A stretch of 64,000 nt of DNA from Clostridia bacterium (GTDB taxonomy: Bacteria > Bacillota > Clostridia > Oscillospirales > CAG-272), in assembly GCA_017503105.1 (NCBI GenBank), contig JAFVTS010000008.1:69453-133452 (forward strand), read 5' to 3'. Position 1 is the stretch's first letter. The number at the start of each line of letters is the position of its first letter. Made by a program: the position numbers and the translations under genes. The notes beneath the pieces are model-generated. The model was not told the origin of the DNA and searched no databases. It saw only the letters and a program-made list of their open reading frames with translations. Of the stretch, positions 9,155 to 53,352 are shown one piece after another.

Positions 9155-9185
9155 ATCAATATCCTCCTTTTTCCGAGCGAAACAC

Positions 9186-9220
9186 AAAGAGGGCTACCCA
9201 CACCGAGTATAGCCCTCTTT
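9186..9220 (-). terminator. Hairpin/terminator between the RHH gene and the transposase gene
   Basis: Stem AAAGAGGGCTA/TAGCCCTCTTT with a 13-nt loop, immediately after the RHH stop codon on the minus strand. Confidence 0.5.
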
Positions 9221-14327: not shown

Positions 14328-14460
14328 AGCGTCCTTTCTGTAAAGAGTTTCTTTGTTGCTACCTCATGGTGTTTCAATGCCGAAGCCCTACTAAACCATA
14401 CTCTTTGCGGTTATTTTCTGCCAAGTGGCAAAGGAAATGCGATCCCTAACAAAATCTTGC

Positions 14461-14574
14461 AACAAATTCGCCCACCGATGTTCGAGTTCGCGTTGGAAGC
14501 CCCATTGTTCCCGTTCCAGTTCCAAAGACCAGCGTTCGCGTCGTTATTCCAGTTCCCACCGACGATCAACACGG
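14461..14574 (-). repeat. DGR template repeat (TR)
   Basis: 114 bp, matches the VR at 103/114 positions. All 11 differences are at TR adenines on the coding strand. Rich in AAC codons. Confidence 0.9.
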
Positions 14575-14609
14575 CAATCATCGGATCGCATTCCCTTATA
14601 TAAAATTTC

Positions 14610-15014
14610 TTATTTCTGCATTGTGCCGAGGACGCCGCGCTCTGCACGATCCTCGACGCGCTTGTTCATCCACAAAAGCGCTTCCTCAATGTGAGTAATA
14701 GCAAGGGAGTTTTCCCTTGTTGCATACTCGCCCTGATTAAACGCTTTGAGGCGATCTCTGACGATTTCCAAGAGATCCGTGTCAAGAACGCCGTGGATGG
14801 CGTCAGGAGTGTTCCGAGCGCCGTGCTGGAATCGAATATCAAGCAAGGCGTCGGCAGGGGTACAGTCGGGTGCATCCTCGCAAATATCCATGCAAGGAGT
14901 ACCAGCAGGCACTACAACATAACGATGCTTACCGTTGCCTGCGCCCACTTCGTCGCTCACATACACATCGTTGAGGTTGTTTCTTTTCTGAATGGTGTTG
15001 AGTTTCTTAAACAT
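14610..15014 (-). CDS. DGR-associated accessory ORF in the Avd position, family not recognised
   Basis: 134 aa from the ATG after GGAGGA. Sits between the target gene and the TR. C-terminal motif AITHIEEALLWMNKRVEDRAERGV. Confidence 0.6.
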   Translation of the reverse strand: MFKKLNTIQKRNNLNDVYVSDEVGAGNGKHRYVVVPAGTPCMDICEDAPDCTPADALLDIRFQHGARNTPDAIHGVLDTDLLEIVRDRLKAFNQGEYATRENSLAITHIEEALLWMNKRVEDRAERGVLGTMQK

Positions 15015-15055
15015 TGTTTTATCCTCCAAAATAATTGATTTAGGGTTTTGTTATA

Positions 15056-15075
15056 ACGGGGGAAAAATCCCCCGT
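15056..15075 (-). other. GC hairpin just 3' of the VR (IMH-associated hairpin/cruciform candidate)
   Basis: 8-bp stem ACGGGGGA/TCCCCCGT with a 4-nt loop, inside a GC-rich stretch that is absent downstream of the TR. Confidence 0.6.
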
Positions 15076-15083
15076 GCGCCCCC

Positions 15084-16163
15084 TTAAAGAGGCTTATAAC
15101 AAAGACGCCCACCGATGTTCGAGGCCGCGTTGGAAGCCCCAATGTTCCCGCTCCAGTACCAAAGACCAGCGTTCGCGTCGCTATTCCAGCGCCCACCGAC
15201 GAACAACACGGTTCCCGTGTCGGCTACATAGTAGTAATCGCTGTAATAGGTGGTACTGCCGCCACCTGCAACCGTGGTATAGCCGAGCAGAGGCATCTTC
15301 TCAAAAGGCGTAATGACAGAAGCATATCCACCAGACATACATCTGTCGCCCATATAGAAGTACGGTGCATCCACCTTGGCGGATTCATACGCAGTCGGAT
15401 CGGTGCAGATAAAGACTTTTTCCGTAGAGAAGGAAATGCCGTCGCACCATGTCCAAGTGTTGCCCCACGGGTTTTCGATGCCGCGATACTTGCAGGCGTG
15501 GTAGCCGTCGGTATTGCAGGTTTCGCAACCGTCCGCGTGATCGCTGTTTGCAGAGCCAGAGGGCGTTTTCACAGCGTCGGTATGACCTGTAATGAGGGCG
15601 GCGGTGTTATCGCCTGCCGTCCAGCCCTTCATGATGCTCTGGGAGTTCGTGGTGGCAAACTCGATCATAAACAACTGTTTGAGGATCGCGTCAATAAGAA
15701 AATCGTACTGCTGGTATCCCTCTCCGTTGGCTTTACAGCCGTTACGGAAATTGCCGATATTGATGTTTACGAGTACGGTCTGTCCGCCCTTGGAATATAC
15801 ACGAGAGGACGATCCAGAGCCTTCGTATTTACCGACAAGCACATAGTCGATCTCGTTGCCCTTGCCGTCGATAAACAGCGTGGAAAAGCCGTCGTAACGA
15901 CAGCCCGAAATCTGGTACTTGTATGTGCCGTTTCCGTTTTTGGTGACCTTGGTGTAGAATTTCGGAATCCTGATAAAGACATTCCCAAATTCGTCCGTGA
16001 CTTCGTGCATCTCGCTCCACGGGTAGCAGTTGTTGAAATCGCTTGAAATCTCACTTGCCCCGATGGAGTAAGAAAGCCCCACGGCGGCGTCTGTTCTGGT
16101 GAGCGTCGGATTTGACTGCCCGACGCCATCCACGCCGTAAATTTTTGTTTTTTCAAGTAACAT
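15084..16163 (-). CDS. DGR target protein, putative receptor-binding tail protein with a C-type-lectin-like variable C-terminus
   Basis: 359 aa. C-terminus GGRWNSDANAGLWYWSGNIGASNAASNIGGR is typical of Mtd/FGE-like DGR targets. Follows the tail-fibre gene. Confidence 0.8.
   Translation of the reverse strand: MLLEKTKIYGVDGVGQSNPTLTRTDAAVGLSYSIGASEISSDFNNCYPWSEMHEVTDEFGNVFIRIPKFYTKVTKNGNGTYKYQISGCRYDGFSTLFIDGKGNEIDYVLVGKYEGSGSSSRVYSKGGQTVLVNINIGNFRNGCKANGEGYQQYDFLIDAILKQLFMIEFATTNSQSIMKGWTAGDNTAALITGHTDAVKTPSGSANSDHADGCETCNTDGYHACKYRGIENPWGNTWTWCDGISFSTEKVFICTDPTAYESAKVDAPYFYMGDRCMSGGYASVITPFEKMPLLGYTTVAGGGSTTYYSDYYYVADTGTVLFVGGRWNSDANAGLWYWSGNIGASNAASNIGGRLCYKPL
15098..15211 (-). repeat. DGR variable repeat (VR) at the 3' end of the target gene
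   Basis: Same comparison as for the TR. Substitutions are N to A, I, S, Y, S and R, I to F, I to L, and one silent change. Confidence 0.9.
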
Positions 16164-23740: not shown

Positions 23741-23878
23741 TTACTTGTTTTTCTTCCCGTTGCGAAGATCGCTACCCTTAACGACGGTGGACTTGGGATC
23801 GCCCTTCGTCACAGGCTTGGGGGCTTTAATGACGCCGCCCTTGTTGGTGGCAAAGCTGTTGCCTGCATCTTTCTTCAT
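23741..23878 (-). CDS. Small basic protein
   Basis: Hand translation gives MKKDAGNSFATNKGGVIKAPKPVTKGDPKSTVVKGSDLRNGKKNK (45 aa). RBS GGAGGA. Confidence 0.35.
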   Translation of the reverse strand: MKKDAGNSFATNKGGVIKAPKPVTKGDPKSTVVKGSDLRNGKKNK

Positions 23879-23978: not shown

Positions 23979-24158
23979 TTATTTGGTTTTTACGGTCTTG
24001 TAAGCGCCGCACTTTTTACATCGGAAAACCAAGCCTTCGACTTTGGAATCCTTTTCAAGCCCGACGCCCTTGACCTTTTCGCCGCAGTCAGGACAAACGA
24101 TTTTCGTGATCTCGTTTTTCTCCGTCTTTTTCTCAATCGGAGTAATCAAAATAGACAT
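23979..24158 (-). CDS. Zinc-ribbon protein
   Basis: 59 aa from the ATG after AGGAGGG. Contains CPDCG...CKKCG. Confidence 0.55.
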   Translation of the reverse strand: MSILITPIEKKTEKNEITKIVCPDCGEKVKGVGLEKDSKVEGLVFRCKKCGAYKTVKTK

Positions 24159-24226: not shown

Positions 24227-27200
24227 TCAGAGGTTTTTGGTGATGATCCTGCCGTTTACAACCTCAAATCCGCACAGTTCGGCTATCTCCGCCTTTTCAG
24301 CCTTTGTCTTGCCTTTGAGGGAGAGAATGTACCGCAGGAGATACTTTTTCGCCTTTTCAGCCGACAGACCGCGAATATCGTTGTCTTGCAGACTGTATCC
24401 CTTTGCGCAGATCAGCAACAGTTTTTTCTCCGTGCTGACACCGAGGGAATTTATCGCGGCTACAACCTTTTTGCGCTTGCTTCCGCTTATGACATTTCCG
24501 CGACGGTCTATATCACTTGTCAGCCCCTTTGTGGTTACATAGAGCAGAGCCAGATTATCCACGCCCACGACATCGGCAATAATGAGGCTATTATTGCCTC
24601 GGTCAATGCCGAGTGCGCCTTCCAGCGCCTTGTCGTAATAGGTATCGTAAATAAAATCAATAGCCGCCGCCTTTTGCTCGTCCGAAAGCGTGTTGTACTT
24701 CGACTTTGCAAACAGGGCTTTGAGGGATTTTTCCGAGGTTGCGTAAATATCTTTGATCGCCGCTTGCTCCGCCGCCGAGAGCGGATATTCTACCTCGTCA
24801 ATCGTGATCGAGGACGGAACGCTTCTGGGAATAACCTTTTGACCGTTTTTCGAGAGGATCAGAAGTTCATTGAACACAACCTCGTCCACATTCTCGTTCA
24901 TTCTTTCGCCCAGCAAAAGGCTCATAATAAACGAGGTCATTTCCGCGTCGTCTTGCTCGATTGCCTTGTAGAGTTCGTTCTGGTAGTTCTTCTCGTAGAG
25001 CGCGCTGTCAATCATGTACGCCGCTTCAGGATTGAAGCGCTTTGTCAAGCCAAAGAATACATTATAGACATTGCGCACGGGGATACCGAACATCTGCCCG
25101 ACGGAGTACGCCAGATTGCGCACAGCACGGTTTCTGTCCTGTACGCTTCCTTCGTTCGTGAGGATATTTCCTGCCACTTCAAAGAGATTCAGAGCGCTAT
25201 CCAGAAGATCATTTACCGCAGAATACGCGTAGTTGTCAACATCGTATCCCTCGAAAATCTTTGCATAGGCATCCTTGAAGAGCGGCAAGCCGCCGAACAG
25301 GTTGCCAACAGCATCGACCAGCATTGTTTCTGCCACGCTCTCGTCCTCGTCCTGCTCCTTGTCGTAGAGCCATCGGAAGAGTTGTGCGATAGACGCCATA
25401 AACACGGCAGTCAGACAGAGTGCGCCCACAGCCTTTCTCGCCTTGCGGTTTGCGGCTTTGAGTTGCTGTTTCAGCGCGGAACGGGTATCCGCGTCGGTGG
25501 TTGCTTTCAGTTTCGATTTCAGGGTGGCGACCTCTCCAATAGCGTCGATAACGCGTCCGACAACCTTCATACTGTCCGAGGTAAACATGGTGAGAGTGCG
25601 CATAATTTCGTTGCCCGACCTCATTGCCGCCGAGCGTTCGGTTGCGACTGCGTTCTGCTGGGTTTCGAGGATCACGCGGCGGAGCAGTTTTCCTGCCTCT
25701 ACCTTGTTAGCCTCCGTACCGATCTTTGCGCCGCCGTTCTTTTGTACCTGCACCTGACAAGCACCGAACAGACGCCCGACCACGAATCTATCCATTTTGC
25801 CAATAGGCGACATGAGAAGATCGCTAAATTTACTTACCGCACCGACAGCGCGCTTCGCTTTGCTGTCAAGAACACCCTGCGCCATAGCCGCCGTATTATC
25901 GTTGTTACGGAGTTTTGCAAGGGAGCAGTATTCATCCATACCCTTTGACGAAACAGCCATACCACGGGTAATGCTGTCCGCATCAAGCAGGCTGGAGGAC
26001 GCGAAGATCGAGGATAACTGTGTAAACCAGACCTTCGGATTTGCGCCGAGTTGGAATTTTGCGTAACTGCCGCGAATGAAGCCAAGCGCTTTCATGCCCT
26101 CGCTGGAGGTGGCAGGGATACCCTGAATATCGGAAATCAGTTTGACGAAATATTTGTTGCCCTTATCCCATGTGTTCGCGCTCTCGGTTGCCACGCTGAT
26201 CGGCTTGTTTTTGTTACCCGAAATATCCAGATTGTAAAGGCGGTTGTACGCCTCGACAGCAGGAGAGAGGTACGCATACTGGCATACAGCGTGGATATGG
26301 CGATTAAATACGGCGTCGGCAGATTCTATAAAGAGTTCCTGCTTTGCGCCGCGCACCGTGTCCTTGTTGAAAGAGGAATTGCTTACGCGGTCAAGTTCTC
26401 CTGCAATATCGGCAGTATCGACATTCTTTGCTATGTTGCCTCTGCGGATCGGATAATAATAGTCGTTCGTCGCATTGGTGAAGCCGAGCCTCTGCATATC
26501 ACGGTCAGCCTTCAATTTGCGCGCATCCACATTGAAAGCCTGCTCCAAAATAGTGATATATTCCTTGTCGGTATCGGTCAGGAGCGCTTCAATAGCGGAC
26601 AGTTGCTCTTTGGTGTACTGTTCGAGTTCCGCATTGGTGATCTTTGCCTCTGGGTTTACAACACCGTTTACACGGACGCGCTTGCCCTTTGTGTCGGTGA
26701 AGGCAAATCCATTCGCCGCCAAACCAGCCCACGCGTGTTTACGCTTCATCGTCATATACAAGCCGATCAAGTGCATTTTGGGGATCTCTGTGCCGCGATA
26801 GGATACGGTATCGACAGAAGCCTTTTCCACATACTTCTTGTGCTTTTTGGTAAACTCGTCGTATGCGGCGCGTATCTCCATCTCCGCCACCTGTGCGTCC
26901 ACCGCCGCGTCGCGGAGTTCCTGCATCATTTCGGTATAGAATCCGCTCTCGTACATATCCATACGGCGCGCAACGGTCATGGGATCTCCGAATGTCTGCA
27001 TATAGGTCGTGCCAGCAAGTTTACTGAACAGACCGACTTTCAGGCTTTCGTTAGCGTGAAGTGTATTGATATAGCGTTCTGCCTCTGGCTTCGCCTCAAT
27101 CCACTTGCCCTGACGGAATACCTTGCCCCAGTTTTCCACAAAGTTTGTGAAATAGGACATCACATCGTACAACATTTTCAGGTCGTCTTTGGTAAAGCCT

Positions 27201-30200
27201 TTTTTGCCTTCGGAGAGGATTTCCAGCATATCCGCGACGCCCTGAACATACAAGCCCGTGCTGTTGGCGTCAACATATTCGAGGATGCCAGTTTTTACAG
27301 CGTCGGAAGTGTACCATTGCCGCAGGTCAGCGAGGATCTTGCGCGTTCCAGATACATTCAAGTTTCCTCTGAATTGGATTCGCGCCAGTTGCTCAATGGA
27401 GTTCTTGAAAATCTCGCTGTCGTGCTGGGTGGAGTTTGCGAAAGTTCCGAGTTTCAGATCCTTCATTTTCTGGGCTTTGCTCATAAGCAGACCGAGCAGG
27501 CGATCCCTGCCTTTGATCTTGTCGTATTCTGCTTTCCAGTATTCCGCCCTCTCGGAGTAATAGCCGATCTTATTTTCAACCATACGGGAGAATTTCGACT
27601 GTTCGCCCTCGGTTTCGTATGCGCGCATGATTTCGTCCTCGACGCTCTTTATCATGCTGGGGATCTCGGAATCGGGCATATCCCAGTACGCGGAGATCCA
27701 TTTGTCTTTCGATTCCGCCAGCGCCCTCTCGTAGAGAGAATCTATTTCGAGGAACGCGTCAACAGGGTGCATCTCTTCCAGATACTCCATAGCAGGCATT
27801 TCGCGCGCTATATCGACCACAAACACATCCATCGGCGTTCTCTTGCTGGAAACGACGCCGCTTGCGCCTGCGACCTTGTGAGCGCCCTTGTAGCCCCACC
27901 TGCCGAGGACTTGCTTCAAGCCCTTTTTGTCGCGCACATGGCGGATCTCGGACATATCTTCCTCGGAGAAGGAAAGTTTACCGATACCCGTGCGGAGATA
28001 GGACAGCCGCTCCTGCGCTTCCAGAGCGTCGGGATTTTCCGTCTTTGCGTCCACAATGATCTTGGCGACGATAAACTCTGCCATATCGTGCGCCACATCT
28101 CGCCTATACTCTACATCGGGGGATTCGTTGAGTATCTGCCAGACTGCATCCGCGATCTCTGTTCTGGTTTTCTGCGTCAGATCGGATATGCCTGCAAACC
28201 TTCCTACAACGGAAAGAGCGTCCTGCTTGCTATAAACCTTCTGCTTTGTGTTGTTGGCAATGATCTTGCGCAGTTCTCCGACGGTCAGGCTTGATTTTCC
28301 AGCCGTTCGCGGCATACCACGGGCAACAACAGCCTCGGCGTCAAAAGTCGCGTCCTGCGCAGAATTTGAGCCGTCTGCGTCGTCGTCGAAAAGTGCGTCC
28401 AGATCCTCGTCGGGAAGAGCGTGGCGAATATCCTTGTCCGCTGTCGGACTTGCGTTGTCAGCGTTCTTGAATTGATTGGAGCGGAAGGTAATATAATCGT
28501 TTGCCACAACACTTTTGCCAGTCTTGGAATAACTGCCTGTGTCGTCAACATTACGGATTATAATGCCGTCGTAATTCATTTCGCCGTCGTCCACGGCTTC
28601 CTCAATGGCGGCGGCAATATCGGCAGGCGTGGTGCGCCATGCTCCATCCTCTTCAAAGGCGGAAGATCCGCGCTCGTCGAGAAATTGCTTGGTTTCGTCG
28701 TCAATAGGGATACGCGACCATTTTTCGCCTCCAGCGTCGATAATGTACGGGTTAGTGATATTCAGATAACCTGCATATCTTTCACCGTTTGGAGAGTAAC
28801 TGTCTGCCATTTCTGCGCTGTCGGTGAAGTAGTTGACATTCCGCCTAAACTCCGTAAAATCTGCCTTTCGTGTGCCGTGATATACCAGCAGAAGATTTCC
28901 GTTTTCGTCAAGCACCTTGCTGTCCGCAAAATACTCTCTCTGCCCTGCGGAGAGGGCGTTGCCCTCGCTGTCGGTTTCAGGGAGAGCGTAACGCATATCA
29001 GAATCGCTTGTGGGTGCTGTGTTGCTGGTAAGTTTGATCTGGTTTGCGTCAAACGCCACAACCTCGTCGCCGTAAAGACTTTGAAGCACTCCGTCATATC
29101 CTCTGCGCTGGATCTCTGCCGAAAACTCGTTTCCGATGCGCGTCATAAAGTGTTCTGGGATGTGCTGTTCGAGGTAACTGTACTTCTTTTCGCTCAAATA
29201 CTGCAACGCGGCAGAAAGACGATGCGCTTCCGCTCTCTTTCTTGTTTCAAATCGTGAGTGAAGATATACCGTTTCAAAATTCCTTTCGCCGTACTTATCC
29301 ATGGCATCCAGAATATCCTCGTACTGCTCTCTGGTGATCTCGCCCTCTTTGCGCAGATATTCCGCCCAAGAAGCAGAATTTATATACTGTTCCTGAATAA
29401 CTTTTTTGAGGTCGGCAGGAATATCCATATTTTCCACATCGTTGTCAATGCGGTACTCGTAGTGATCTCCGCGCACATCGTCGCGTACCTCGACGACAGA
29501 AAGACGCTTGCTGTCGTAAATCTCCTTCAGTTCTGCGGCAAGGTCAACAAAATTTTTCTCTGTAACCTCGCTTGAATCTCCGTAGGAGTGTTCTGCAACC
29601 TCGACAGTCATTTTCTTTGCAATGTCGGGGAATTTTTCAGCCATATTAAGGACAAAACTTGCAAAATCGAACAGAATATCTCCACTCGTTACGCCGTCGT
29701 AAGCCTGCATCTCGTCGTCAAAGACAAACGGATTTTTGATATTCAAGTAACATTCGAGGACGCGTCTGCCGTAATATTCCGCCTCGCCCTTCCTGAAAGC
29801 AAAGTAAAAGCCTTTTCCGTACCATCCTGCATCATTGGAAGATCCAGAAAGGTTTTTGTCAAACTCGTAAAACTCGCCATTATTCGTGCCGTGATACACA
29901 GGCATTAAAGCACCATCGGGAGATATGCGAAGGCTTCCGTCGTCCTGCACCGCCTTGATCGCGCTATCGGCAAAGAATTTCTGTTGTTCTGGCGTGAGCG
30001 CTTTGCCCTTGGTGTCCGTATCAGGCAGGGAGTATCGCACATCGGGATTTTCGGTGGGGGATTGGTTGGTAACAAGTTTCGCCTGCTCTGAATAGAAAGC
30101 CACAATTTGATCGCCGCTATCGTCCATGCGCGTGTCCTTGATCCAGATACCGTCATAACCTTGCTCAATGAGTTTATTACGGTATTTTTCCGCCGCCTCG

Positions 30201-33200
30201 CGCCCGTTCATCCCCATCATGTGCTTGCGTCCAAAACCGCGCTCGTAGTTGTGAGATGGATAAATCCACTCCATAAACTCGTCCAAATCGTCGCTCATTT
30301 GCATAAACGAATCGCCATCCTCCAGACGGCTGATCTGTTCCAAGTTGTCAGAGCGTTTTGCAAGGTTTGTTTTGAGAGAATCGACCAAAGAAAGGGCGTG
30401 TTTTGCCTTTTCTTCGCTCAATTTCATAATCTCCATGTAATAGTCAAGACCGACGCGGAATCCCACACAGCGCTCGATAGATCTTCCGAGTTCTGTGTCA
30501 AAGTAAAGAAGCCAGTTTGTCGTTCCGACTGTTTTCTGCAAATCGGCAAACAATGTTTTGTTTTCCGCCAGTACATCCTCGATCTCCTTGCGGAGTTCCG
30601 CTATACGAGCAGAGTTATCCACAGGCTCGTATATCTTCGGGTTTTTGAGGTTGAGATAAACCGTCTTAACCGAGGCGATTCTGCCGAGGTATTCATTGGA
30701 ATTAAACTCTGCAAAGTGTTCCGCGACCTCTTTTTGCGGAGTAAACCAAAAACCGACATGTGAGGTCTGGTTGTTGCTCTTGCCAGTTTCTTTGAGGTCA
30801 AAAATATTGAAATCCGCCGCCGTTCCGTGATAAAGCACAAGCAGTTTTCCGTCCTTATCCCGTATCACGCTATCCTTAAAAAATTCCCTCTGTTCCGCCG
30901 TCAAATTCGCACCTTCGCTGTCCGTTTCGGGCAAAGCATGGCGCTCGTCAGAAGAAATTTCGGAATTTCTATTGACATTTTCGGCAGGATCGGTTATACT
31001 ATCCGTAGGAACAGTATCCATACTCGATCTCGCTTCGGGCGTTCTAATCAGGGCTTCGGCATTGGTTGGTTGAGAAATGTGCTGTTCTTTTTTTATGATC
31101 CATGCAGTTTTGAGAGTGAGCGCTTTCCGCTTCTCGGAGAAAATTGTAATAGCGGTGGTTTTTCCTGCGATCTCTTTTTTGAAGATCAGGGAGAGAACGC
31201 CGCTTTTTTCGTCCTTTTCGGAAGTTACTTCGTCGGGATCTGCAATGGTTTCAATGACATACTCGAAATTATCCGCCGTGATCGCTTCCTGATTGCGCAT
31301 AGCCTCGGAATCGGCGTCGCCGTGTTCCTTCATCATGTGGCGCAGGTCGTGACTGTTGAGGGCGATACTCTTATTAAAAGCGTTCAAACCAGTTGCCTTG
31401 TGGATCTTCGCCGCAGTTTTGCTGGAAATCTTGCCGACAAACATGGTTTTGCCCTCGTTCGACTTGTCGGAAATAGAATACTCGAAAAATTCCAGTACAT
31501 CGTCATAGGAACGAGCGGTAATATTGTCTTTTCTGGCTTCGATGCTTTTCCGCTCTTCGTCGGAATATGCACCGATGCTGTCAGGGAGCGCTCTGCGCTG
31601 GGGTTTAACCTCGGCGGAGGGCGCTTTTCCTCTCTCGTCCTGCCGCGACAGTTCCAGAGCGTTGTTGCCCTGATTTTGCGCCGACAGATCGGCAAAGAGT
31701 TTTTTGTATGTACGGAGCAGTTTGCGCGCCTCTGCGGACAGTTTTTCGTCGGCAGAGTAATCTCTTGCCGCTTTGCGGAAGAAACTCAACACCTTTTCCG
31801 AAAGAGAGGGATCTTCGCCCAGAATGTACTCCCACGCGTTCGCGTCGCCCAGCACATCCTCGATATACGCCGTCGTGATCTCTTCGTTTACGATAGGCAT
31901 ATACTGCTCCATAGACATACCTTGCTTCTTGTAGAAGTTGATATATCTTTGTGCGATCTCCTGCGATCTTTCGGGCGCAATGCGCCTGAAAGCCTCGGCA
32001 ATGAGGTTTTTACCGTCTTTACTGCGGAGCAGGGCGTGTCCTGCCTCGTGGAGCAGAAGTCGGCTCTGGAGGCGTTCTTTCGGCGCGTTGGGATTGATAT
32101 AAATGGTGTTGCCCTGAATGTTCGCATCACCGACGGCGGATTTTGCGCCGTCAAATACGATATTCATACCAGATCGAGCGGCAACACGGGCAAAGGTCAG
32201 CGTTTCCGCCTCTGCAATACCGTTCGCCTGCGCCTGTCTGATCGTCATACGGACTGCCTGCTTGTTCGGCTCTGACAGCGTATGATATTCAGGGATGCGC
32301 TCTGTCGCCATGGCGTCAATGTCAAGCGCCTGCCGCCCCAGATTTGTTTCCTCGGTAAACTGTTCCACCGTGGGCGTCTGGACGGTATTGCTGTTCCAGA
32401 ATGTGCGGAGTACCTTGTTGACCTCTTGAACGGAGAGGGAGCGGCTGATATTGCCGCTTTCATAGTCAAAAAGGTGGTAGGTTTCGCCCTCTTTGAAAAC
32501 AGCCATATTGACAGCGCTGTTCTCGCTGGTGAAGCGATATACGCCGTCAGACATATTTCTGCGGAGGATATGAGGAATAGGCTTCGCGCTCTCCTGCGCC
32601 GTCTGCATAGCCGCGCGGATGCGCTTGGACTGCTGTGCATACTCGGAGATCTTCTCGCTGGTTGCAAATTCAGCCACTCTTGCGCGGAAATCGTCAATCG
32701 TCAAAGCAGACCAGTCGGAAATACCGAGATCCGCCGAGAGGGCGGCGATCTGTTCCTTGCTTGCGTGTTCTACAAAGTAATTGAGGTCTGCGCTGTTGGC
32801 GAGATTTGCGCCGTTCAGAGCCGCTTCTGCGAAACGCTGGGTATCCATAGTAATACGACCAGTCGCGTCCGCCACAGCCAGCGTAGCAAGGGTAGAATTG
32901 CTGGTAAGAGCCGCGCGAATAGACTTAACAAGGGCTTTCTGCTGCTCCCGTGTGCGCTCCTGCGGTGCGATCTGCAAGAGTGTTGCGTCCACGCCAGAGC
33001 GGATGTCGTCTGCGGTAAGGTTGAGCGGCTTGCCGTTGGCGTCCTTCATTCCAAATTCGCTGTATCTCTGCGCCACAGATTCCGCGTTTGCAAGGATATT
33101 GACAGCGCTTCGCTCAATAAAGGGCATAAAGATCGACGCCGTATTTGCCCTCTTGATCTGACCGAGAAGCATTTTCTGTTTGACGGTCTGCACCGTGCCG

Positions 33201-34285
33201 CCCGTGGTTTTCAGGCTCTCGGACAGTTGCTCGTATGCGTTTTTGACCGTCTGGAACGACGCGTAGCCCGTATCGTTTGCGTTTTCGGTTTCGGTGAGTT
33301 GGCGCGCGGTTTCCATGACGGATTCCACCGTGCCGTTTTCGATTGCTTTGCTACCAGAGAAAAGGTTTTGCGTGGTGTTTACGCCTGCGCTGATCGCCGT
33401 ACTGCCGCCGCTCATAACAAGACCAGACAGACCTCCGACGAGCGCCGCGTATGCCACTTCCTGCGGCGTTGCGTTCTCCGCGTCGGGATTGAATGTCATG
33501 CGTTGGTACACGGGATCGAGTACCTCTGCCAGACCTTCCTCGAAGGCTTCTGTCGCAAAGTCGGTTACAAGGTTTTTGATAACGGTTTTCGCGCCAGTCT
33601 TTGCGACTGTTTCTGCCGTTTCCTTTGCCGTCGCCTTTGCGATAGAGGATACGATACGACCAGAGCCTTTCGCCATGCCTGCCGTCAGGATCTCCACGCC
33701 TGCCTCGGTTGCGCCAGAGAGGAAGCCGTATCCAAACTCTTTCGCGCCGAGTTCTCCCGATTGCTTGTATGCTTCCTTGGTTGCGTTACCTGCCGCACCA
33801 AAGCCAGCGATACTACCAGAGATAATGCCTGCCGCAAGGGGTGACAGCGATCCTCCAGAGAAGTACGCTATCGCCGCACCTGCCGCGACGCCTGCAATGG
33901 CAGGGAGGCTCGTGCCTATGCCCCCTGCCACATCACCTGCGACCTGCCAGCCCTCGGACGGATTAAACCATTCATCCGCGTGGGAATAGTTTACCCAGTC
34001 ATTTGAGAATTGCTGTTCCGCCCAGTCGTCAGCGCCGAACAGTTTGGCAATACCACCAGCACCATAATCCCAAATACCTTCAATACCAGAGAGGAAGCCC
34101 AGACCAACCTTTTCAAAGAGGTATCCCACTCCGCCGAGAAATCCGCCGTTGTTCTGGGATTCCGCGACCTGCTGGGAAGCCTGCACAGAATAGTTCAGAG
34201 CCGCCGCAGGGGCAGAGGAAGCAAGTGTACGCTTGCTTCCGCCTGCGGCATTATTCATTTGTGATAGTGAGAAAGTCGTTGCCAT
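24227..34285 (-). CDS. Giant (3352 aa) polyvalent virion protein
   Basis: Gly/Ala-rich hydrophobic N-terminus. HEAGH at aa 746-750. A ...SHDLRHMMKEHGD... module at aa ~950-1070. Three paralogous YHGT modules at aa 1115-1416, 1417-1764 and 1765-1953. Long helical C-terminal half with a TM segment. Located between the portal and scaffold genes. Confidence 0.7.
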   Translation of the reverse strand: MATTFSLSQMNNAAGGSKRTLASSAPAAALNYSVQASQQVAESQNNGGFLGGVGYLFEKVGLGFLSGIEGIWDYGAGGIAKLFGADDWAEQQFSNDWVNYSHADEWFNPSEGWQVAGDVAGGIGTSLPAIAGVAAGAAIAYFSGGSLSPLAAGIISGSIAGFGAAGNATKEAYKQSGELGAKEFGYGFLSGATEAGVEILTAGMAKGSGRIVSSIAKATAKETAETVAKTGAKTVIKNLVTDFATEAFEEGLAEVLDPVYQRMTFNPDAENATPQEVAYAALVGGLSGLVMSGGSTAISAGVNTTQNLFSGSKAIENGTVESVMETARQLTETENANDTGYASFQTVKNAYEQLSESLKTTGGTVQTVKQKMLLGQIKRANTASIFMPFIERSAVNILANAESVAQRYSEFGMKDANGKPLNLTADDIRSGVDATLLQIAPQERTREQQKALVKSIRAALTSNSTLATLAVADATGRITMDTQRFAEAALNGANLANSADLNYFVEHASKEQIAALSADLGISDWSALTIDDFRARVAEFATSEKISEYAQQSKRIRAAMQTAQESAKPIPHILRRNMSDGVYRFTSENSAVNMAVFKEGETYHLFDYESGNISRSLSVQEVNKVLRTFWNSNTVQTPTVEQFTEETNLGRQALDIDAMATERIPEYHTLSEPNKQAVRMTIRQAQANGIAEAETLTFARVAARSGMNIVFDGAKSAVGDANIQGNTIYINPNAPKERLQSRLLLHEAGHALLRSKDGKNLIAEAFRRIAPERSQEIAQRYINFYKKQGMSMEQYMPIVNEEITTAYIEDVLGDANAWEYILGEDPSLSEKVLSFFRKAARDYSADEKLSAEARKLLRTYKKLFADLSAQNQGNNALELSRQDERGKAPSAEVKPQRRALPDSIGAYSDEERKSIEARKDNITARSYDDVLEFFEYSISDKSNEGKTMFVGKISSKTAAKIHKATGLNAFNKSIALNSHDLRHMMKEHGDADSEAMRNQEAITADNFEYVIETIADPDEVTSEKDEKSGVLSLIFKKEIAGKTTAITIFSEKRKALTLKTAWIIKKEQHISQPTNAEALIRTPEARSSMDTVPTDSITDPAENVNRNSEISSDERHALPETDSEGANLTAEQREFFKDSVIRDKDGKLLVLYHGTAADFNIFDLKETGKSNNQTSHVGFWFTPQKEVAEHFAEFNSNEYLGRIASVKTVYLNLKNPKIYEPVDNSARIAELRKEIEDVLAENKTLFADLQKTVGTTNWLLYFDTELGRSIERCVGFRVGLDYYMEIMKLSEEKAKHALSLVDSLKTNLAKRSDNLEQISRLEDGDSFMQMSDDLDEFMEWIYPSHNYERGFGRKHMMGMNGREAAEKYRNKLIEQGYDGIWIKDTRMDDSGDQIVAFYSEQAKLVTNQSPTENPDVRYSLPDTDTKGKALTPEQQKFFADSAIKAVQDDGSLRISPDGALMPVYHGTNNGEFYEFDKNLSGSSNDAGWYGKGFYFAFRKGEAEYYGRRVLECYLNIKNPFVFDDEMQAYDGVTSGDILFDFASFVLNMAEKFPDIAKKMTVEVAEHSYGDSSEVTEKNFVDLAAELKEIYDSKRLSVVEVRDDVRGDHYEYRIDNDVENMDIPADLKKVIQEQYINSASWAEYLRKEGEITREQYEDILDAMDKYGERNFETVYLHSRFETRKRAEAHRLSAALQYLSEKKYSYLEQHIPEHFMTRIGNEFSAEIQRRGYDGVLQSLYGDEVVAFDANQIKLTSNTAPTSDSDMRYALPETDSEGNALSAGQREYFADSKVLDENGNLLLVYHGTRKADFTEFRRNVNYFTDSAEMADSYSPNGERYAGYLNITNPYIIDAGGEKWSRIPIDDETKQFLDERGSSAFEEDGAWRTTPADIAAAIEEAVDDGEMNYDGIIIRNVDDTGSYSKTGKSVVANDYITFRSNQFKNADNASPTADKDIRHALPDEDLDALFDDDADGSNSAQDATFDAEAVVARGMPRTAGKSSLTVGELRKIIANNTKQKVYSKQDALSVVGRFAGISDLTQKTRTEIADAVWQILNESPDVEYRRDVAHDMAEFIVAKIIVDAKTENPDALEAQERLSYLRTGIGKLSFSEEDMSEIRHVRDKKGLKQVLGRWGYKGAHKVAGASGVVSSKRTPMDVFVVDIAREMPAMEYLEEMHPVDAFLEIDSLYERALAESKDKWISAYWDMPDSEIPSMIKSVEDEIMRAYETEGEQSKFSRMVENKIGYYSERAEYWKAEYDKIKGRDRLLGLLMSKAQKMKDLKLGTFANSTQHDSEIFKNSIEQLARIQFRGNLNVSGTRKILADLRQWYTSDAVKTGILEYVDANSTGLYVQGVADMLEILSEGKKGFTKDDLKMLYDVMSYFTNFVENWGKVFRQGKWIEAKPEAERYINTLHANESLKVGLFSKLAGTTYMQTFGDPMTVARRMDMYESGFYTEMMQELRDAAVDAQVAEMEIRAAYDEFTKKHKKYVEKASVDTVSYRGTEIPKMHLIGLYMTMKRKHAWAGLAANGFAFTDTKGKRVRVNGVVNPEAKITNAELEQYTKEQLSAIEALLTDTDKEYITILEQAFNVDARKLKADRDMQRLGFTNATNDYYYPIRRGNIAKNVDTADIAGELDRVSNSSFNKDTVRGAKQELFIESADAVFNRHIHAVCQYAYLSPAVEAYNRLYNLDISGNKNKPISVATESANTWDKGNKYFVKLISDIQGIPATSSEGMKALGFIRGSYAKFQLGANPKVWFTQLSSIFASSSLLDADSITRGMAVSSKGMDEYCSLAKLRNNDNTAAMAQGVLDSKAKRAVGAVSKFSDLLMSPIGKMDRFVVGRLFGACQVQVQKNGGAKIGTEANKVEAGKLLRRVILETQQNAVATERSAAMRSGNEIMRTLTMFTSDSMKVVGRVIDAIGEVATLKSKLKATTDADTRSALKQQLKAANRKARKAVGALCLTAVFMASIAQLFRWLYDKEQDEDESVAETMLVDAVGNLFGGLPLFKDAYAKIFEGYDVDNYAYSAVNDLLDSALNLFEVAGNILTNEGSVQDRNRAVRNLAYSVGQMFGIPVRNVYNVFFGLTKRFNPEAAYMIDSALYEKNYQNELYKAIEQDDAEMTSFIMSLLLGERMNENVDEVVFNELLILSKNGQKVIPRSVPSSITIDEVEYPLSAAEQAAIKDIYATSEKSLKALFAKSKYNTLSDEQKAAAIDFIYDTYYDKALEGALGIDRGNNSLIIADVVGVDNLALLYVTTKGLTSDIDRRGNVISGSKRKKVVAAINSLGVSTEKKLLLICAKGYSLQDNDIRGLSAEKAKKYLLRYILSLKGKTKAEKAEIAELCGFEVVNGRIITKNL

Positions 34286-34300: not shown

Positions 34301-37300
34301 TTATCCCACATACTTTGCATACATTTTGTCAAGATACTCCTGATAGGTGTTGCAACCAGTAGAGGATTTTCTGCGCGCCCATTCCGTGCGCGTCATGATA
34401 TTGGAATAACCTGCATCCGCCGCGTCCTGATAAGAAGTCCATTTAGGATTTGCTTTCGCCGCCGTTCCTGCGCTGTTTGCCGACGCCGTGGAAGTTGTAT
34501 CTCCGCCTCCAAAGAAGAGGTTGTAGAGGTTGTTGTAATGGTCGGTATAACTTCCAGAGCGCTTCTGGATTTTGAATACTCGGTTATCTTTCTTGATGTA
34601 GATAGTTCCTTGATAGCCGAACACAGTTCCGTCGGACAGATCGGACGCGACTTCCTTAATGTTTGTGTCGTTAATCTCGCCACCAGATTCGATGCGGTAC
34701 TTTGTGCCGTTGCAAATAACGGAGAAATTGTTTCCTGCTTCTGCGAGGTCGTCCGAGCCAAAGAAGAGGAACGAGCCATCGTTGTTAAATTTAACACTTT
34801 TGGTAATAGGCGTATAAAGGCTTCTATATACCGCGCGCAGAGCGCTCTTTGTCGCCTCGCTACACCATTTGCTGTTGCAGATCTTGTCAAGTTCGACCTT
34901 TGCCGCGCTCTTGTTGAGAAGCGCCGTGCCGTCGTTGTTGTAGAAGGTGCTTGCGCTGGTGTCGATTGCGTTATTCCACTTGGCTTTCAGATCGTCATAC
35001 TGTGCCTGCGAAATCTTGCCGTCGGCGTAAGCCTTATCAATGGCATCGGTGTCGGCGTAGCCGTAAGAAATATCCTCGGCAAAACTGTTGTAATTGCTTT
35101 CTTGGATATTCTCGATCTGTGCCTTGCCTTGCTCTTCGGTGATCGCGCCACTCTGGACGGCATCCTCGATATAGCCGATATTGTCACCAGTACCAGCAGA
35201 GAGTTCCGCATTTGCCGCCGCCTGACGCTTCTGCTCGTAATCGTTCGCCGCATTGACGAGAGAATTTGTCTGCTCTTCGGAAAGACCGTACTCCTGCGCG
35301 AGTTGTCGCAACTGATCGGCGGTATAAGAGCCAGAGTTTGCACCAGCCAAAAACTCGGTGTACGCGGCTCTTGCGTAGGAGGTTTCTTCCTCCGCCTTTG
35401 CCGCCGCCTCGTCGGCTTTCTGTTGACGGTATGCGCCGATGGCGTTGTCGTTGTTGAGCATATTTTCTCTGTACGACATATCGGCATTGAATTTGCCAGC
35501 GTCCGCCGCCTGATTTGCCGCCAGAGTATCCGCACGAGCCGCCGCCTCTGCATCCGCAACATTCTTGGAGTAAGAGGAATCCGCCGCATACTTGTTCTCG
35601 TTGTATGCCTGATCCGCTTCGTACTTGGCGTTGCGTTCGTTGGTGTGGGCTTCATAGTCCATGGCGCTCTTCTGGGCGTCTGCGTTCGCTTTGTTGGTGG
35701 CGTATGTGGTATCAATCTCATATACCCGATCCGCGTACTGGCTCTCGGCGTTGTAGGTGTTTTCACGGTGCGCCGCGTCCGCCTCTGCCTTCGACTGCTT
35801 TTCCGCACTCTCGGCGGCGTACTTGCTATCCTCCAGAGATTGATCTGCCGCAAGTTTATTGCTCTGGTATGTGGTGTCAACCTCATACATATTTTGCTTG
35901 TATTGAGATTCAGCGTTATACTGATTTTGGAGATGGTCGGCGTCAGCCTGTGCCTTTGCGCTTCTCTCGGCGCTTTCGGCGGCATGTTTACCTTCAGCAA
36001 GCGCCTGATCGGCGGCAGTCTTGTTGCCCTGATAGGTCGTATCAATCTCGTACATATTCTGGCTGTACTGGGATTGTGCATTATAGACATTCTCCTGATG
36101 CGCCGCCTCGGCATTGGTCGCCGTCTGGCGTCTGGCGCTATCGGCAGAGTGCTTGCTATCTTCGAGTGCCTGATCCGCAGAGAGTTTGTTCTTCTGGTAG
36201 GAAAGGTCGAGATCGTACATTCTATCCGCGTACTGCGATTCCGCCGTGTGCTTGTTCTGGAGGTAGTCGGTGTCGGCTTGGAGTTTCGCCTGACCTTCCA
36301 CATAGTCCGCATCACGCTTCACAGCCGCCGCCTGTGCGTTTGCCTGCTGGGTTTCCGCTCTCTGCTGGGCGTATGCCTGCTGATTGATATAATCGCCGTA
36401 TCCGCTTCCAGTCAAGCCCATACCAGCCATAGCCTCGGCGTTTGCACCGTAGGAGGCTTTGTTCTGCTCGTAAGAGGAACGCGCGTCCACGACGCTACGC
36501 TCCCTCTCGACATCGGCGCTGGTGTACGCCTGCTGTCTTTGGAGTTCCGCCGCCTCGTAAACCTTTTCCTGCATCTCCTTTGACATAGAAAGCAGAAGGT
36601 CGCGCTGTTCTGCCGCCATAGCCTCGCCAGTCGCCTTTTGCTGATTGATCGCGTCAATCACAGACTGGTATTGCTTTGTGGCGTGGAGAATATCGGCGTT
36701 GTACTGTTCCTCTGCCGCCGCGAGAACGGCATTGCGCTGACTTTCAGACATAGACAAGAGAAGATCCCTCTGTTCGGTTGCAAGTGCTTCACCTGCCGCC
36801 CTCTGCGCATTGATAGAATCAATAAGCGTCTGGTACTGCTGTTCAGCGTAGGCAATATCCGCCGCACGCTGTTCCTCTGCCGCCGCATAGATCGTGCTTC
36901 TCTGGGATTCCGACATAGAGAGAAGGAGATCCCTCTGCTCCTGCGCCAACGCTTCACCAGACAATTTCTGCGCGTTGATTGCCTCAATGAGAGCGCCGTA
37001 CTGCTTCTCGGCTTGTGCAATGTCAGCCGCGCGCTTTTCCTCGGCGTATGCGTACACGGCGTTGCGCTGTTCCTCGGACATGGAAAGAAGAGCCTGCTTC
37101 TGTTCCTCTGCCAGAGCCATTCCAGAGTTTTTCTGTGCGTTGATGGATTCGATCAGCGTGTCATACTGCTGTTGAGAGTAATTCAGATCAGCCATGAGTT
37201 GCTGTTCTGCGTTGCTGTAAGCAGAGTTCTTGGCGGTTTCTGCCGCACCGTAGAGAAGATCCTTCTGGTTTTGAGCCTCGGCAAGTGCCGCCTGACGCTG

Positions 37301-37909
37301 TGCCTCGATGGCTTCCAGCGTTTTCTGGTTTTGCTCGTTGTAATATTGCGTCTGCTCGTCGTAAATATCCTTATACGCGCCCTCCTGCTTGCGCAGGTAT
37401 TCCTCGTAACTGTCGATAGCCGCCACGCCATCCCACGCAGAGGTAACAGGAGCGGCAGGAGCGGTTTCTGCCGCAGGGGGTGTAGAAGATCCACCGCCAG
37501 AGGCAGGAGCAGACAGAGGCGTTTTCTGGGCGCTTCCGCTGTTGGGATTATACGGCAAGGTTTCCACCTTCGGCTCGTCGCGTCCTACCTGATATTCAAG
37601 CGTTGTGGGCTTTGCCGCGCTACCATCGTTCGGATTATGAACAAGCGTCTGGGGCGCAGACTGACTGCCAGCGATATAATCCCCGTAGGTCATGCCGTTA
37701 TAAGCACCATTTACAGCGCCAGCAACGGCGTTCGCGGCGTTTGCCACACCAGCACCAACAGTCGCGCCGACGACGGGAGCAGAGGGCGTATTTGCACCAT
37801 ACGATGTATCTACCGTAGGCGTAGAATTGCCCTGTGCGTTTTTTACTGCGTTAGCGGCGGCGCTTACAACCGCACCAACGGAATTACGGATTTGATCCCA
37901 TATCGACAT
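34301..37909 (-). CDS. Repeat-rich 1202-aa virion-module protein (coiled-coil; internal/ejection or tape-measure-like candidate)
   Basis: RBS AGGAGGAAAG. Gly/Ala-rich N-terminus, two families of 55-aa tandem repeats and a globular C-terminus. Confidence 0.65.
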   Translation of the reverse strand: MSIWDQIRNSVGAVVSAAANAVKNAQGNSTPTVDTSYGANTPSAPVVGATVGAGVANAANAVAGAVNGAYNGMTYGDYIAGSQSAPQTLVHNPNDGSAAKPTTLEYQVGRDEPKVETLPYNPNSGSAQKTPLSAPASGGGSSTPPAAETAPAAPVTSAWDGVAAIDSYEEYLRKQEGAYKDIYDEQTQYYNEQNQKTLEAIEAQRQAALAEAQNQKDLLYGAAETAKNSAYSNAEQQLMADLNYSQQQYDTLIESINAQKNSGMALAEEQKQALLSMSEEQRNAVYAYAEEKRAADIAQAEKQYGALIEAINAQKLSGEALAQEQRDLLLSMSESQRSTIYAAAEEQRAADIAYAEQQYQTLIDSINAQRAAGEALATEQRDLLLSMSESQRNAVLAAAEEQYNADILHATKQYQSVIDAINQQKATGEAMAAEQRDLLLSMSKEMQEKVYEAAELQRQQAYTSADVERERSVVDARSSYEQNKASYGANAEAMAGMGLTGSGYGDYINQQAYAQQRAETQQANAQAAAVKRDADYVEGQAKLQADTDYLQNKHTAESQYADRMYDLDLSYQKNKLSADQALEDSKHSADSARRQTATNAEAAHQENVYNAQSQYSQNMYEIDTTYQGNKTAADQALAEGKHAAESAERSAKAQADADHLQNQYNAESQYKQNMYEVDTTYQSNKLAADQSLEDSKYAAESAEKQSKAEADAAHRENTYNAESQYADRVYEIDTTYATNKANADAQKSAMDYEAHTNERNAKYEADQAYNENKYAADSSYSKNVADAEAAARADTLAANQAADAGKFNADMSYRENMLNNDNAIGAYRQQKADEAAAKAEEETSYARAAYTEFLAGANSGSYTADQLRQLAQEYGLSEEQTNSLVNAANDYEQKRQAAANAELSAGTGDNIGYIEDAVQSGAITEEQGKAQIENIQESNYNSFAEDISYGYADTDAIDKAYADGKISQAQYDDLKAKWNNAIDTSASTFYNNDGTALLNKSAAKVELDKICNSKWCSEATKSALRAVYRSLYTPITKSVKFNNDGSFLFFGSDDLAEAGNNFSVICNGTKYRIESGGEINDTNIKEVASDLSDGTVFGYQGTIYIKKDNRVFKIQKRSGSYTDHYNNLYNLFFGGGDTTSTASANSAGTAAKANPKWTSYQDAADAGYSNIMTRTEWARRKSSTGCNTYQEYLDKMYAKYVG
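35510..36277 (-). repeat. Coding tandem repeat family B (5 x 55 aa)
   Basis: ESQY/QSQY/DSSY recur at aa 557, 612, 667, 722 and 777. Unit consensus ..H.EN.YNAESQY..NMYE.DTTYQ.NK.AADQ.L. Confidence 0.7.
36500..37192 (-). repeat. Coding tandem repeat family A (4 x 55 aa)
   Basis: INAQK/INAQR/INQQK recur at aa 256, 311, 366 and 421. Unit consensus ..GEALA.EQRDLLLSMSESQR..Y.AAEEQRAADIA.AE.QY..LI. Confidence 0.7.
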
Positions 37910-45782: not shown

Positions 45783-45934
45783 TTCGCCACCTTCTTTCCG
45801 TAAGCCCTCTCCTTGGAATAGTAGTGCTTACAACGGTCTATTTCGTCACCCACACCCTTGAAATAACCCTGATACAGGCAAACGCACTTGTGGATGCAGT
45901 TCCGACATCTCTGCTTGTTGGTAAGTTTTTTCAT
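45767..45934 (-). CDS. Small Cys-rich protein
   Basis: Hand translation MKKLTNKQRCRNCIHKCVCLYQGYFKGVGDEIDRCKHYYSKERAYGKKVAKWKPH (55 aa). ATGA overlap with the radical SAM stop. Confidence 0.35.
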   Translation of the reverse strand: MKKLTNKQRCRNCIHKCVCLYQGYFKGVGDEIDRCKHYYSKERAYGKKVAKWKPH

Positions 45935-53170: not shown

Positions 53171-53188
53171 TAGACCGTTACAGGTTTG

Positions 53189-53265
53189 CGTCTTTAGCTC
53201 AGCTGGATAGAGCAACTGCCTTCTAAGCAGTAGGTCGGGGGTTCGAGTCCCTCAAGACGCGCCAT
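53189..53265 (+). tRNA. tRNA-Arg (anticodon UCU)
   Basis: Hand-folded cloverleaf: acceptor GCGTCTT/AAGACGC, anticodon loop CT-TCT-AA, T-loop TTCGAGT, encoded CCA. Confidence 0.9.
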
Positions 53266-53274
53266 TAACATACG

Positions 53275-53352
53275 GTGGAATTAGCTCAGTTGGTAGTAGC
53301 GCCAGGTTGTGGCCCTGGAGGTCGTGGGTTCGAGCCCCATATTTCACCCCAT
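53275..53352 (+). tRNA. tRNA-His (anticodon GUG)
   Basis: Extra 5' G(-1), anticodon stem CCAGG/CCTGG with loop TT-GTG-GC, T-loop TTCGAGC, encoded CCA. Confidence 0.85.

Follow-up and report, generated by a model that had tools for sequence, protein, structure and literature searches.

We analysed a window of 64,000 nucleotides (nt) from a Clostridia bacterium (GenBank assembly GCA_017503105.1, contig JAFVTS010000008.1, positions 69,453 to 133,452; coordinates below are those of the window), which carries a prophage with one giant gene. The window is bacterial chromosome at its edges, with genes for ribosomal protein L1, a ClpC-like ATPase, a SpoIID-domain protein and Lgt. The prophage occupies ~43 kb, from about 9.5 to 53 kb with approximate ends, and the giant gene makes up ~23% of its length. 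On the minus strand the prophage genes follow one another in the order small and large terminase subunits (TerS, TerL), SU10-like portal, p1202, giant gene, two small open reading frames (ORFs), p297, p132, major capsid protein (MCP), p304, p881 and tail fibre. This order is conserved, as far as stretches reach, in ~18 independent genome loci. An initial annotation, made from the letters of the window alone, had placed the giant gene between the portal and scaffold genes; the order holds, with p1202 intervening on the portal side and the two small ORFs on the presumed-scaffold side.

The same annotation had read a single ORF over these 10 kb, and the frame is indeed intact: its 3352 codons contain no internal stop, and the predicted product has a mass of ~370 kDa. 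A Shine-Dalgarno sequence precedes the start codon, and the stop codon of p1202 (34301-34303) lies 15 nt ahead of it, so that the two genes are tightly coupled. Dozens of independent genomes contain intact giant ORFs of 2200-3470 amino acids arranged in the same way, and the frame is therefore not an assembly artefact. The features of the gene, from its 5' end onwards, are as follows.

24227..34285, minus strand: giant gene, 3352 amino acids and stop; uninterrupted ORF with Pfam matches, predicted polyvalent protein of the phage type
34291..34296, minus strand: Shine-Dalgarno AGGAGG, 5 nt 5' of the ATG at 34283-34285
33356..34285, minus strand: N-terminal Gly/Ala-rich region, amino acids 1-310, part of the chassis; amino acids ~44-430 are conserved in relatives
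31598..32368, minus strand: zincin-like metallopeptidase domain, amino acids 640-896; HExxH and Glu conserved in relatives
31580..31597, minus strand: junction motif 1, RRALPD, amino acids 897-902, between the zincin and the PBECR3 region
31082..31432, minus strand: PBECR3 (PF18812), RNase-like domain of the BECR fold, amino acids 952-1068; 55.5 bits against a gathering cut-off of 30
30038..30943, minus strand: ART-PolyVal module 1, amino acids 1115-1416; 82.4 bits with PF18760, opens with RHALPE
28994..30037, minus strand: ART-PolyVal module 2, amino acids 1417-1764; 73.4 bits with PF18760, opens with RYSLPD
28427..28993, minus strand: ART-PolyVal module 3, compact, amino acids 1765-1953; 70.4 bits with PF18760, opens with RYALPE
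28286..28426, minus strand: junction motif 5, RHALPD, amino acids 1954-1959, with an acidic linker into the C-terminal scaffold
24230..28285, minus strand: C-terminal chassis or scaffold, amino acids ~2001-3352 (~1350 residues); predicted all-alpha, common to other giant phage proteins
25364..25435, minus strand: strongest hydrophobic helix, amino acids 2951-2974 (KAVGALCLTAVFMASIAQLFRWLY), kept in the family consensus

The coordinates of HEAGH, of NSHDLRHMMKEHGD, of the three YHGT motifs and of the three module limits had all been given exactly in the initial annotation. The G+C content along the gene is 0.556 at 32001-34000 (the Gly/Ala-rich 5' part), 0.485-0.495 at 28001-32000 (the cassettes) and ~0.505 in the scaffold. 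This shift is compatible with a foreign origin of the cassettes; amino-acid composition also accounts for it.

Predicted effector domains of the giant protein

Scanned on its own, each of the three YHGT modules exceeds the gathering cut-off of the ART-PolyVal model PF18760 (31.2 bits), and the entire giant protein matches this model at E 1.9e-57. The modules had been called ADP-ribosyltransferase (ART)-like from their motifs, and the profile searches assigned them to no other fold. YHGT stands at amino acids 1152, 1464 and 1802. With mutual identities of 30-41% and 39 invariant columns, the three modules are true paralogues. Module 3 matches PF18760 end to end; modules 1 and 2 match in two pieces and contain inserts of 114 (amino acids 1249-1362) and 188 residues (amino acids 1534-1721), both of which separate the YLN-NP strand from the YDG strand. 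Module 2, insert included, has a 59%-identical orthologue in one relative (L004), and no close counterpart of modules 1 and 3 was found among the relatives compared. Three copies with differing insertions would likely have different targets.

The active site of ART-PolyVal domains consists of a His in strand 1, a Tyr in strand 2 and an Asp in strand 5 (Iyer, Burroughs, Anand, de Souza & Aravind 2017, PMC5512222). The putative triads are H1465/Y1494/D1731 in module 2 and H1803/Y1819/D1906 in module 3. His and Asp are retained in all three modules and an aromatic residue is kept at the Tyr position, which varies between Y, F, W and H among family members. The structure prediction suggested by the initial annotation was run on module 3. 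The AlphaFold 2 (AF2) model has a predicted local distance difference test score (pLDDT) of 87.7 and places H1803, Y1819 and D1906 on the corresponding strands; the strand assignment of the triad comes from this one model. Its best Foldseek match in the PDB is the diphtheria toxin CRM197, at an E-value of only 0.07 (probability 0.75, template modelling (TM) score 0.34), and the tankyrase PARP domain (PARP5A) ranks fourth. One family member matches the Pfam PARP model (E 2.3e-5).

It could be argued that the ART-like modules do not modify proteins at all, being instead NAD+ glycohydrolases or enzymes that ADP-ribosylate nucleic acids, with some of them (module 1) perhaps serving as non-catalytic binding domains. 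The H-Y-[DE] clades of ARTs include modifiers of DNA, RNA and small molecules (Iyer et al. 2017, PMC5512222), the Tyr position is variable, and no substrate was found for any ART-PolyVal domain in the literature library searched; against this stand the His and Asp kept in every module and the aromatic residue between them. We consider this rather unlikely, and it is a variant of the explanation favoured below rather than another kind of object.

The nuclease-like module of the initial annotation turned out to be PBECR3, with a score above the cut-off, and includes the motif NSHDLRHMMKEHGD at amino acids 977-990. His988 is present in 13/13 sequences of a family alignment and His983 in 10/13, and the column of Thr1060 holds Thr or Ser in 9 of the 11 sequences extending that far. 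His983, His988 and Thr1060 would fit the His/Ser-Thr configuration described for PBECR domains.

Upstream of PBECR3, HEAGH at amino acids 746-750 (nt 32036-32050) provides H746, E747 and H750, and Glu802 (nt 31880-31882) occupies the position of the downstream Glu ligand of the zincin signature. Each of these four residues is at least 90% conserved in an alignment of 43 family members. The zincin region of some relatives matches DUF6782 (three members, best E 3.9e-6), M78 and M91, and the MPTase-PolyVal model matches no family member. Together, three ART-PolyVal domains, PBECR3 and the zincin signature in one ORF bear out the earlier identification as a polyvalent protein; the profile matches support the ART-PolyVal and PBECR3 assignments. 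At least two disparate effector domains thus stand in one chain, encoded between the terminase/portal and major capsid genes, as in polyvalent proteins of the phage type.

Chassis, family and junctions

The cassettes are framed by conserved regions that, along with the zincin, we call the chassis. The N-terminus was described from the start as Gly/Ala-rich and hydrophobic, which agrees with a G+A content of 34% in amino acids 1-200 and with glycine-zipper-like hydrophobic stretches at amino acids 119-165 and 277-298. The predicted helical nature of the C-terminal part, with its transmembrane segment, was likewise upheld: an AlphaFold model of amino acids 2200-3352 (pLDDT 68.7) is nearly all helix, and the hydrophobic helix lies at amino acids 2951-2974. 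No Pfam model, LPD families included, matched either the C-terminal or the N-terminal Gly-rich chassis, and the giant protein as a whole matches no NCBIfam profile. Compared with predicted viral structures (BFVD), the scaffold gave 51 Foldseek matches at E <= 0.001. Most of these are pieces of giant metagenomic phage proteins, labelled as nuclease, PolyVal ADP-ribosyltransferase, MuF C-terminal or large polyvalent protein-associated domain. A weak match is gp40 of Salinivibrio phage CW02, an internal virion protein (E 4.8e-4, TM-score 0.12). For a further BFVD match, a 'structural protein' of a Flavobacterium phage, virion data were looked for in the literature and nothing useful was found.

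An exhaustive HMMER search with the C-terminal scaffold against 1.84 billion cluster representatives (50%-identity clusters) recovered 1447 clusters at E <= 0.001, 492 of them at E <= 1e-30, which gives a lower bound for the size of the family. In nearly all of the best 150 of these 1447 relatives the module is C-terminal in a protein of 2000-3900 amino acids. When the C-terminal and N-terminal parts were searched separately against a set of 5.8 billion proteins, the C-terminal 1350 residues recovered many giant metagenomic proteins with differing N-terminal halves. A scan of one genome per species yielded 93 loci, mostly in metagenome-assembled genomes of gut Clostridia (Christensenellaceae, Oscillospiraceae, Eubacteriales), and IMG/VR added 45 loci on contigs of up to ~53 kb. 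An annotated phage collection gave no nucleotide match and weak protein matches to the effector region (6) and the scaffold (2), so no cultured relative was found.

Among the matches listed, the 122 representatives of at least 2000 amino acids have a median length of 2781 and a maximum of 3889 amino acids. The size of the giant protein is normal for the family, since 12 of the 122 match or exceed its 3352 residues. No ART copy was found in 75 of them, one in 39, two in 5 and three in 3; three copies also occur at the genome loci L004, L008 and L009, the last two of which apparently encode the same protein. Three copies are thus the top of the family range and not unique. Published polyvalent proteins reach 12 ART copies and 15 domains per chain, the 12 in a protein of a Pseudomonas prophage (Iyer et al. 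2017, PMC5512222). With that, and with relatives of 3300-3900 amino acids being common, the claim of an unusually large arsenal did not survive.

The middle region of 43 family members contains ART-PolyVal in 25, LPD3 in 6, DUF3990 in 6, PBECR5 in 5, PBECR3 in 5, LPD23 in 3 and MuF_C in 2, and GNAT, ADPrib_exo_Tox, PARP and Tox-SHH as single cases. The family therefore consists of a fixed chassis (N-terminal region, zincin and C-terminal module) and variable middle cassettes. Nucleotide conservation against related loci follows this division, with peaks at amino acids 51-200 and 2600-2950 and nearly nil at amino acids 900-1950.

The boundaries between modules are marked by a short motif, [RK]-x-[AS]-[LMI]-P-[DE] (short form R-x-[AS]-L-P-[DE]), which is so far undescribed. 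Five copies, at amino acids 897, 1115, 1417, 1765 and 1954, compare with 0.04 expected (mean of 1000 shuffles). They occupy all five boundaries: zincin to PBECR3 region, PBECR3 to ART module 1, module 1 to 2, module 2 to 3, and module 3 to scaffold. Relatives of the closer clade also carry the motif, even before modules without an ART match (L006, L011, L077, L083). In the AF2 model, the motif before ART module 3 is confidently structured (pLDDT 85-96). The peptidase of polyvalent proteins has been proposed to cut the chain into units (Iyer et al. 2017, PMC5512222), and by analogy the motif could be a processing site of the zincin; it could equally be no more than a conserved border between modules at which recombination is favoured.

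The closest relative with sequence (L094) is 96.1% identical to our window over 8457 nt comprising the scaffold and the downstream genes. At the nucleotide level, the PBECR and ART cassettes of L094 bear no resemblance to those of the giant gene. The joints of these unrelated blocks lie in a 160-nt segment at 99.4% identity (amino acids 1067-1120) and a 138-nt segment at 89% (amino acids 1763-1808), both spanning domain junctions. Such a mosaic reads as the signature of cassette exchange by recombination.

Within the giant gene itself, the DNA of the five junctions is 39-59% identical, as expected from protein identity. An unusual DNA similarity among the junctions of one gene was therefore rejected; the conservation is between phages.

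The giant frame of L094 has an in-frame stop ~35 codons ahead of its RYALPETD junction (L094 3400-3620), and gene callers give products of 1169 and 1825 amino acids. On several other contigs, too, a short ORF of its own encodes the N-terminal part: P0046 (352 amino acids), which shares a 42.5-kb contig with P0002, and P0029. These split frames could be a genuine two-gene arrangement, like p59/p60 of phage F116, or errors or pseudogenes.

The phage around the giant gene

Further features beside the giant gene or in the early region of the prophage are the following.

34301..37909, minus strand: partner gene p1202, Q/A/E-rich, 1202 amino acids, between the portal gene and the giant gene
23979-24158, minus strand: ORF of 59 amino acids with a zinc ribbon (CPDCG...CKKCG), preceded by a TTGTGCTATAAT-like promoter element
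23741-23878, minus strand: Lys-rich (basic) ORF of 45 amino acids, following a hairpin with a T-run
45931-46866 and 49235-50173, minus strand: early-region radical SAM and RecT-like genes, respectively

The product of p1202 consists of tandem helical repeats of ~56 and ~45 amino acids, and it matches no family apart from weak hits of the coiled-coil type. In both clades, the distant one included, a relative of p1202 directly precedes the giant gene, which suggests a functional pair. It is possibly a partner resembling internal virion protein C (IVP-C).

The major capsid protein is Mu gpT-like, and no tape measure, tail tube, sheath or chaperone gene was recognised in the prophage. A tape measure corresponds, as a rule of thumb, to about 1.5 A of tail length per residue. 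The giant protein might itself be taken for a tape-measure-like tail protein with lytic or enzymatic domains, considering its great length, its helical character, its Gly-rich hydrophobic segments and the fact that in the distant clade the gene follows tail genes. However, a ruler of 3352 amino acids would imply a tail of ~500 nm, the gene lies here between portal and capsid genes in a prophage with an SU10-like portal, and it matches no tape-measure model of Pfam or PHROG. Similar prophages of Clostridium clostridioforme LM41, phi1 and phi4, are predicted podoviruses in which an 8-kb ORF, ~20% of the genome, resembles large polyvalent proteins, and most particles released from this strain looked like podoviruses (Humphrey et al. 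2024, PMC11318856). We therefore regard a tape measure as most improbable. The LM41 prophages share with ours a gut Clostridia host and a layout that matches the distant clade of the family; they differ in having the gene at the 3' end and not beside the portal gene, and the likeness is drawn from their description.

The position of the giant gene had suggested a protein of the MuF/SPP1 gp7 kind. The position is as described; Phage_Mu_F has no match in the giant protein. MuF-toxin systems are the model for another reading, that of a polymorphic-toxin-like weapon of the lysogen, whose released particles would deliver ART and RNase toxins that kill or arrest non-immune competitors, the cassettes not being counter-defence effectors in aid of the phage. 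Cassettes are exchanged at conserved junctions in polymorphic toxin systems too, the repertoire overlaps with toxin families (Tox-SHH and ADPrib_exo_Tox occur in the family, and ART-PolyVal is grouped with Tox-ART-HYD2), and some members contain MuF_C. Against this, no recognisable immunity gene follows the giant gene: only the 59- and 45-residue ORFs are found there, and L094, whose cassettes differ, has genes of equal size in this position. The cassettes are, moreover, internal rather than C-terminal tips, and the operon is one of complete, apparently functional phage morphogenesis. A weapon of this kind is, in our view, very unlikely.

Further observations concern the rest of the prophage. 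A diversity-generating retroelement lies at 13275-16163 (minus strand), with a reverse transcriptase gene at 13275-14327 (phrog_1423, E 1.6e-89), a template repeat at 14438-14574 and a variable repeat at 15075-15211, at the 3' end of a tail protein gene (15084-16163). The repeats are 137 nt long and 85% identical; of the 20 mismatches, 13 fall on adenines of the template, and the remaining 7 are confined to the final ~25 nt. A gene for an IS30-like DDE recombinase (HTH_38 and rve; 8111-9187, minus strand) stands at the left prophage edge. A gene of the rve family at the prophage edge also adjoins the giant gene in L002 (17777-18820) and L003, and L001 has none. Along with the Mu gpT-like capsid protein, these genes raise the question of a DDE transposase-type integrase in this phage lineage. 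Near the right end, genes for tRNA-Arg(TCT) and tRNA-His(GTG) stand side by side (53188-53351) and may be the attachment site. Among the early genes are one for a radical SAM protein (phrog_9298, E 3e-70) and one for a RecT-like annealing protein (phrog_148, E 5e-62).

A polyvalent protein on a fixed chassis

Packaging and injection have been shown experimentally for the virion RNA polymerase gp50 of phage N4. Like the giant protein, it is a very large chain (~3500 amino acids) with a zincin domain (Iyer et al. 2017, PMC5512222); its C-terminus resembles IVP-D (internal virion protein D; Hardies et al. 2016, PMC4819975), and it has relatives with ART and PBECR domains. It differs in its RNA polymerase module, which is absent from the giant protein, and no sequence similarity was detected between the two. 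The closest likeness is to the polyvalent proteins of the phage type as a class (Iyer et al. 2017, PMC5512222): a huge multidomain protein among virion genes, with a zincin hub, ART-PolyVal and PBECR domains, repeated domain copies and fast shuffling of architecture. Unlike those described, the giant protein has C-terminal and N-terminal chassis parts that match no Pfam model and a zincin that misses MPTase-PolyVal. The kind is thus already described, and the giant protein is a clean, large example of it rather than a new system.

Other phages provide partial parallels. The 2811-residue polyvalent protein gp47 of phi24B, a Shiga toxin (Stx) podophage, has been found in virions by proteomic analysis, and a role as packaged ejection protein was proposed for it (bioRxiv 10.64898/2026.04.10.717836). 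Like the giant protein it is very large and polyvalent, and it comes from a temperate phage with a short tail; it contains LPD5, LPD1, LPD38 and MuF-C instead and has a Gram-negative host, the comparison being one of reported domains rather than of sequence. Modules of IVP-D (T7 gp16-like) are fused to intracellular enzymes in N4 gp50 and H66 gp60, and p60 of Pseudomonas phage F116 is listed as the IVP-D of a podovirus (Hardies et al. 2016, PMC4819975). In F116 p60 (L084 7408-12357), labelled a hypothetical protein in RefSeq, we found an ART-PolyVal-like domain at amino acids 522-674 (hhalign probability 96.9%) with the motifs VVYHGT, GFYFT, YLNIQNP and YDGIVF. From these matches it would exemplify, in a cultured phage, an ejection protein that carries an ART, although it differs from the giant protein in having 1649 amino acids, one ART copy and no similarity outside the ART domain. 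As a functional model, Alt of phage T4 is a head-packaged, injected ART that modifies proteins of the host as infection begins; unlike the modules described here it belongs to the R-S-E and not the H-Y-D clade, and is a single-domain protein of ordinary size (Iyer et al. 2017, PMC5512222).

We consider it probable that the giant protein is a phage-type polyvalent protein in which a chassis bears effector cassettes, and which is packaged, injected, perhaps processed by its zincin, and renewed by recombination. The giant gene would be transcribed late, together with the head genes, and a few copies of the product would be packed in the capsid and expelled with the DNA via the portal and the short tail, the hydrophobic, helical chassis aiding the crossing of the envelope. 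The effectors would act in the cytoplasm of the new host during the first minutes, the ART domains modifying host targets with the use of NAD+ and PBECR3 cutting RNA. The zincin may cleave at the R-x-[AS]-L-P-[DE] junctions, freeing the modules, and related phages would swap cassettes by recombination in the conserved DNA that encodes the junctions.

Several results weigh against this explanation. None of the Pfam peptidase models reached its cut-off on the giant protein (the best, Peptidase_M78, scored 19.4 against 22 bits), so that the zincin of the initial annotation is carried by its conserved signature and not by a model match. At the Tyr position of the putative triad of module 1 (H1153/W1180/D1378) there is a Trp. 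Nothing in the PDB matched the module 3 structure at E <= 0.001, which leaves the ART fold weakly supported on the structural side, and sequence searches of the PDB, whether started from the entire protein or from the profiles of scaffold and ART, yielded nothing significant, and hence no sequence relative of the ART profile. No experimental work on ART-PolyVal or Tox-ART-HYD2 was found in the literature library. The ordered structure of the motif before ART module 3 argues against a floppy, exposed cleavage linker there. In the distant clade the giant gene stands at the prophage end, after the tail genes and away from the portal gene. We infer capsid packaging and injection from gene position and by analogy, and it is by analogy, too, that enzyme activities, targets and self-processing are attributed to the giant protein. 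As to the chassis, a Foldseek search of the PDB with the scaffold model returned generic helical repeats only (TM-score <= 0.11) and left the T7 gp16 structures unmatched. A profile of 64 scaffold sequences aligned to the IVP-D profile of nine Zobellviridae phages with an hhalign probability of <=0.2%, and similarity to F116 p59/p60 was confined to the ART domain.

The last of these results bear equally on the view that the protein is primarily structural, a pilot or ejectosome protein for DNA ejection and the counterpart of T7 gp16/IVP-D, the N4 gp50 C-terminus and phi24B gp47. The chassis would then be the conduit across the Gram-positive wall and membrane, p1202 an IVP-C-like component, and the cassettes optional. 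What is conserved, at the DNA level as well, is the chassis, most of the long representatives listed have no ART domain, hydrophobic helices and a constant helical partner gene are present, and no tape measure is recognised; the IVP-D-enzyme fusions, the proposal for phi24B gp47 and the CW02 gp40 match point the same way, but the TM-score of that match is just 0.12. We judge this view possible yet doubtful as a replacement for the polyvalent-protein explanation, which it complements. A homology of the scaffold to T7 gp16 or IVP-D was rejected, neither hhalign nor hmmsearch detecting similarity (IVP-D was compared through the nine-phage profile and T7 gp16 by structure, not profile), and the functional analogy was retained. 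Judged by these searches, the chassis, taken as the Gly-rich N-terminus and the helical module together with the partner gene, appears to fall outside existing family models.

A bolder proposal, which we put forward tentatively, is that the giant protein is a self-processing, hot-swappable polyprotein. The zincin would cut the junction motif in cis, and the same segments would serve as recombination joints. The helical module and p1202 would form an ejection apparatus that has so far gone undescribed, used by short-tailed phages whose hosts are Gram-positive anaerobes and sharing no sequence relationship with the ejection proteins of T7, P22 and N4.

Polyvalent proteins are believed to be deployed before all others when a phage enters a new host, and almost none has been studied experimentally. 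The giant protein is an intact member, with well-marked limits, of a large family that gut Clostridia carry in abundance. Its clear module limits and three diverged, adjacent ART copies are suited to module-wise expression, the search for targets and counter-defence screens. The chassis defines a large, unstudied family of gut phages, and its separation from the cassettes provides, together with the junction motif and the mosaic seen in L094, a testable model of how such an arsenal may be processed and renewed.

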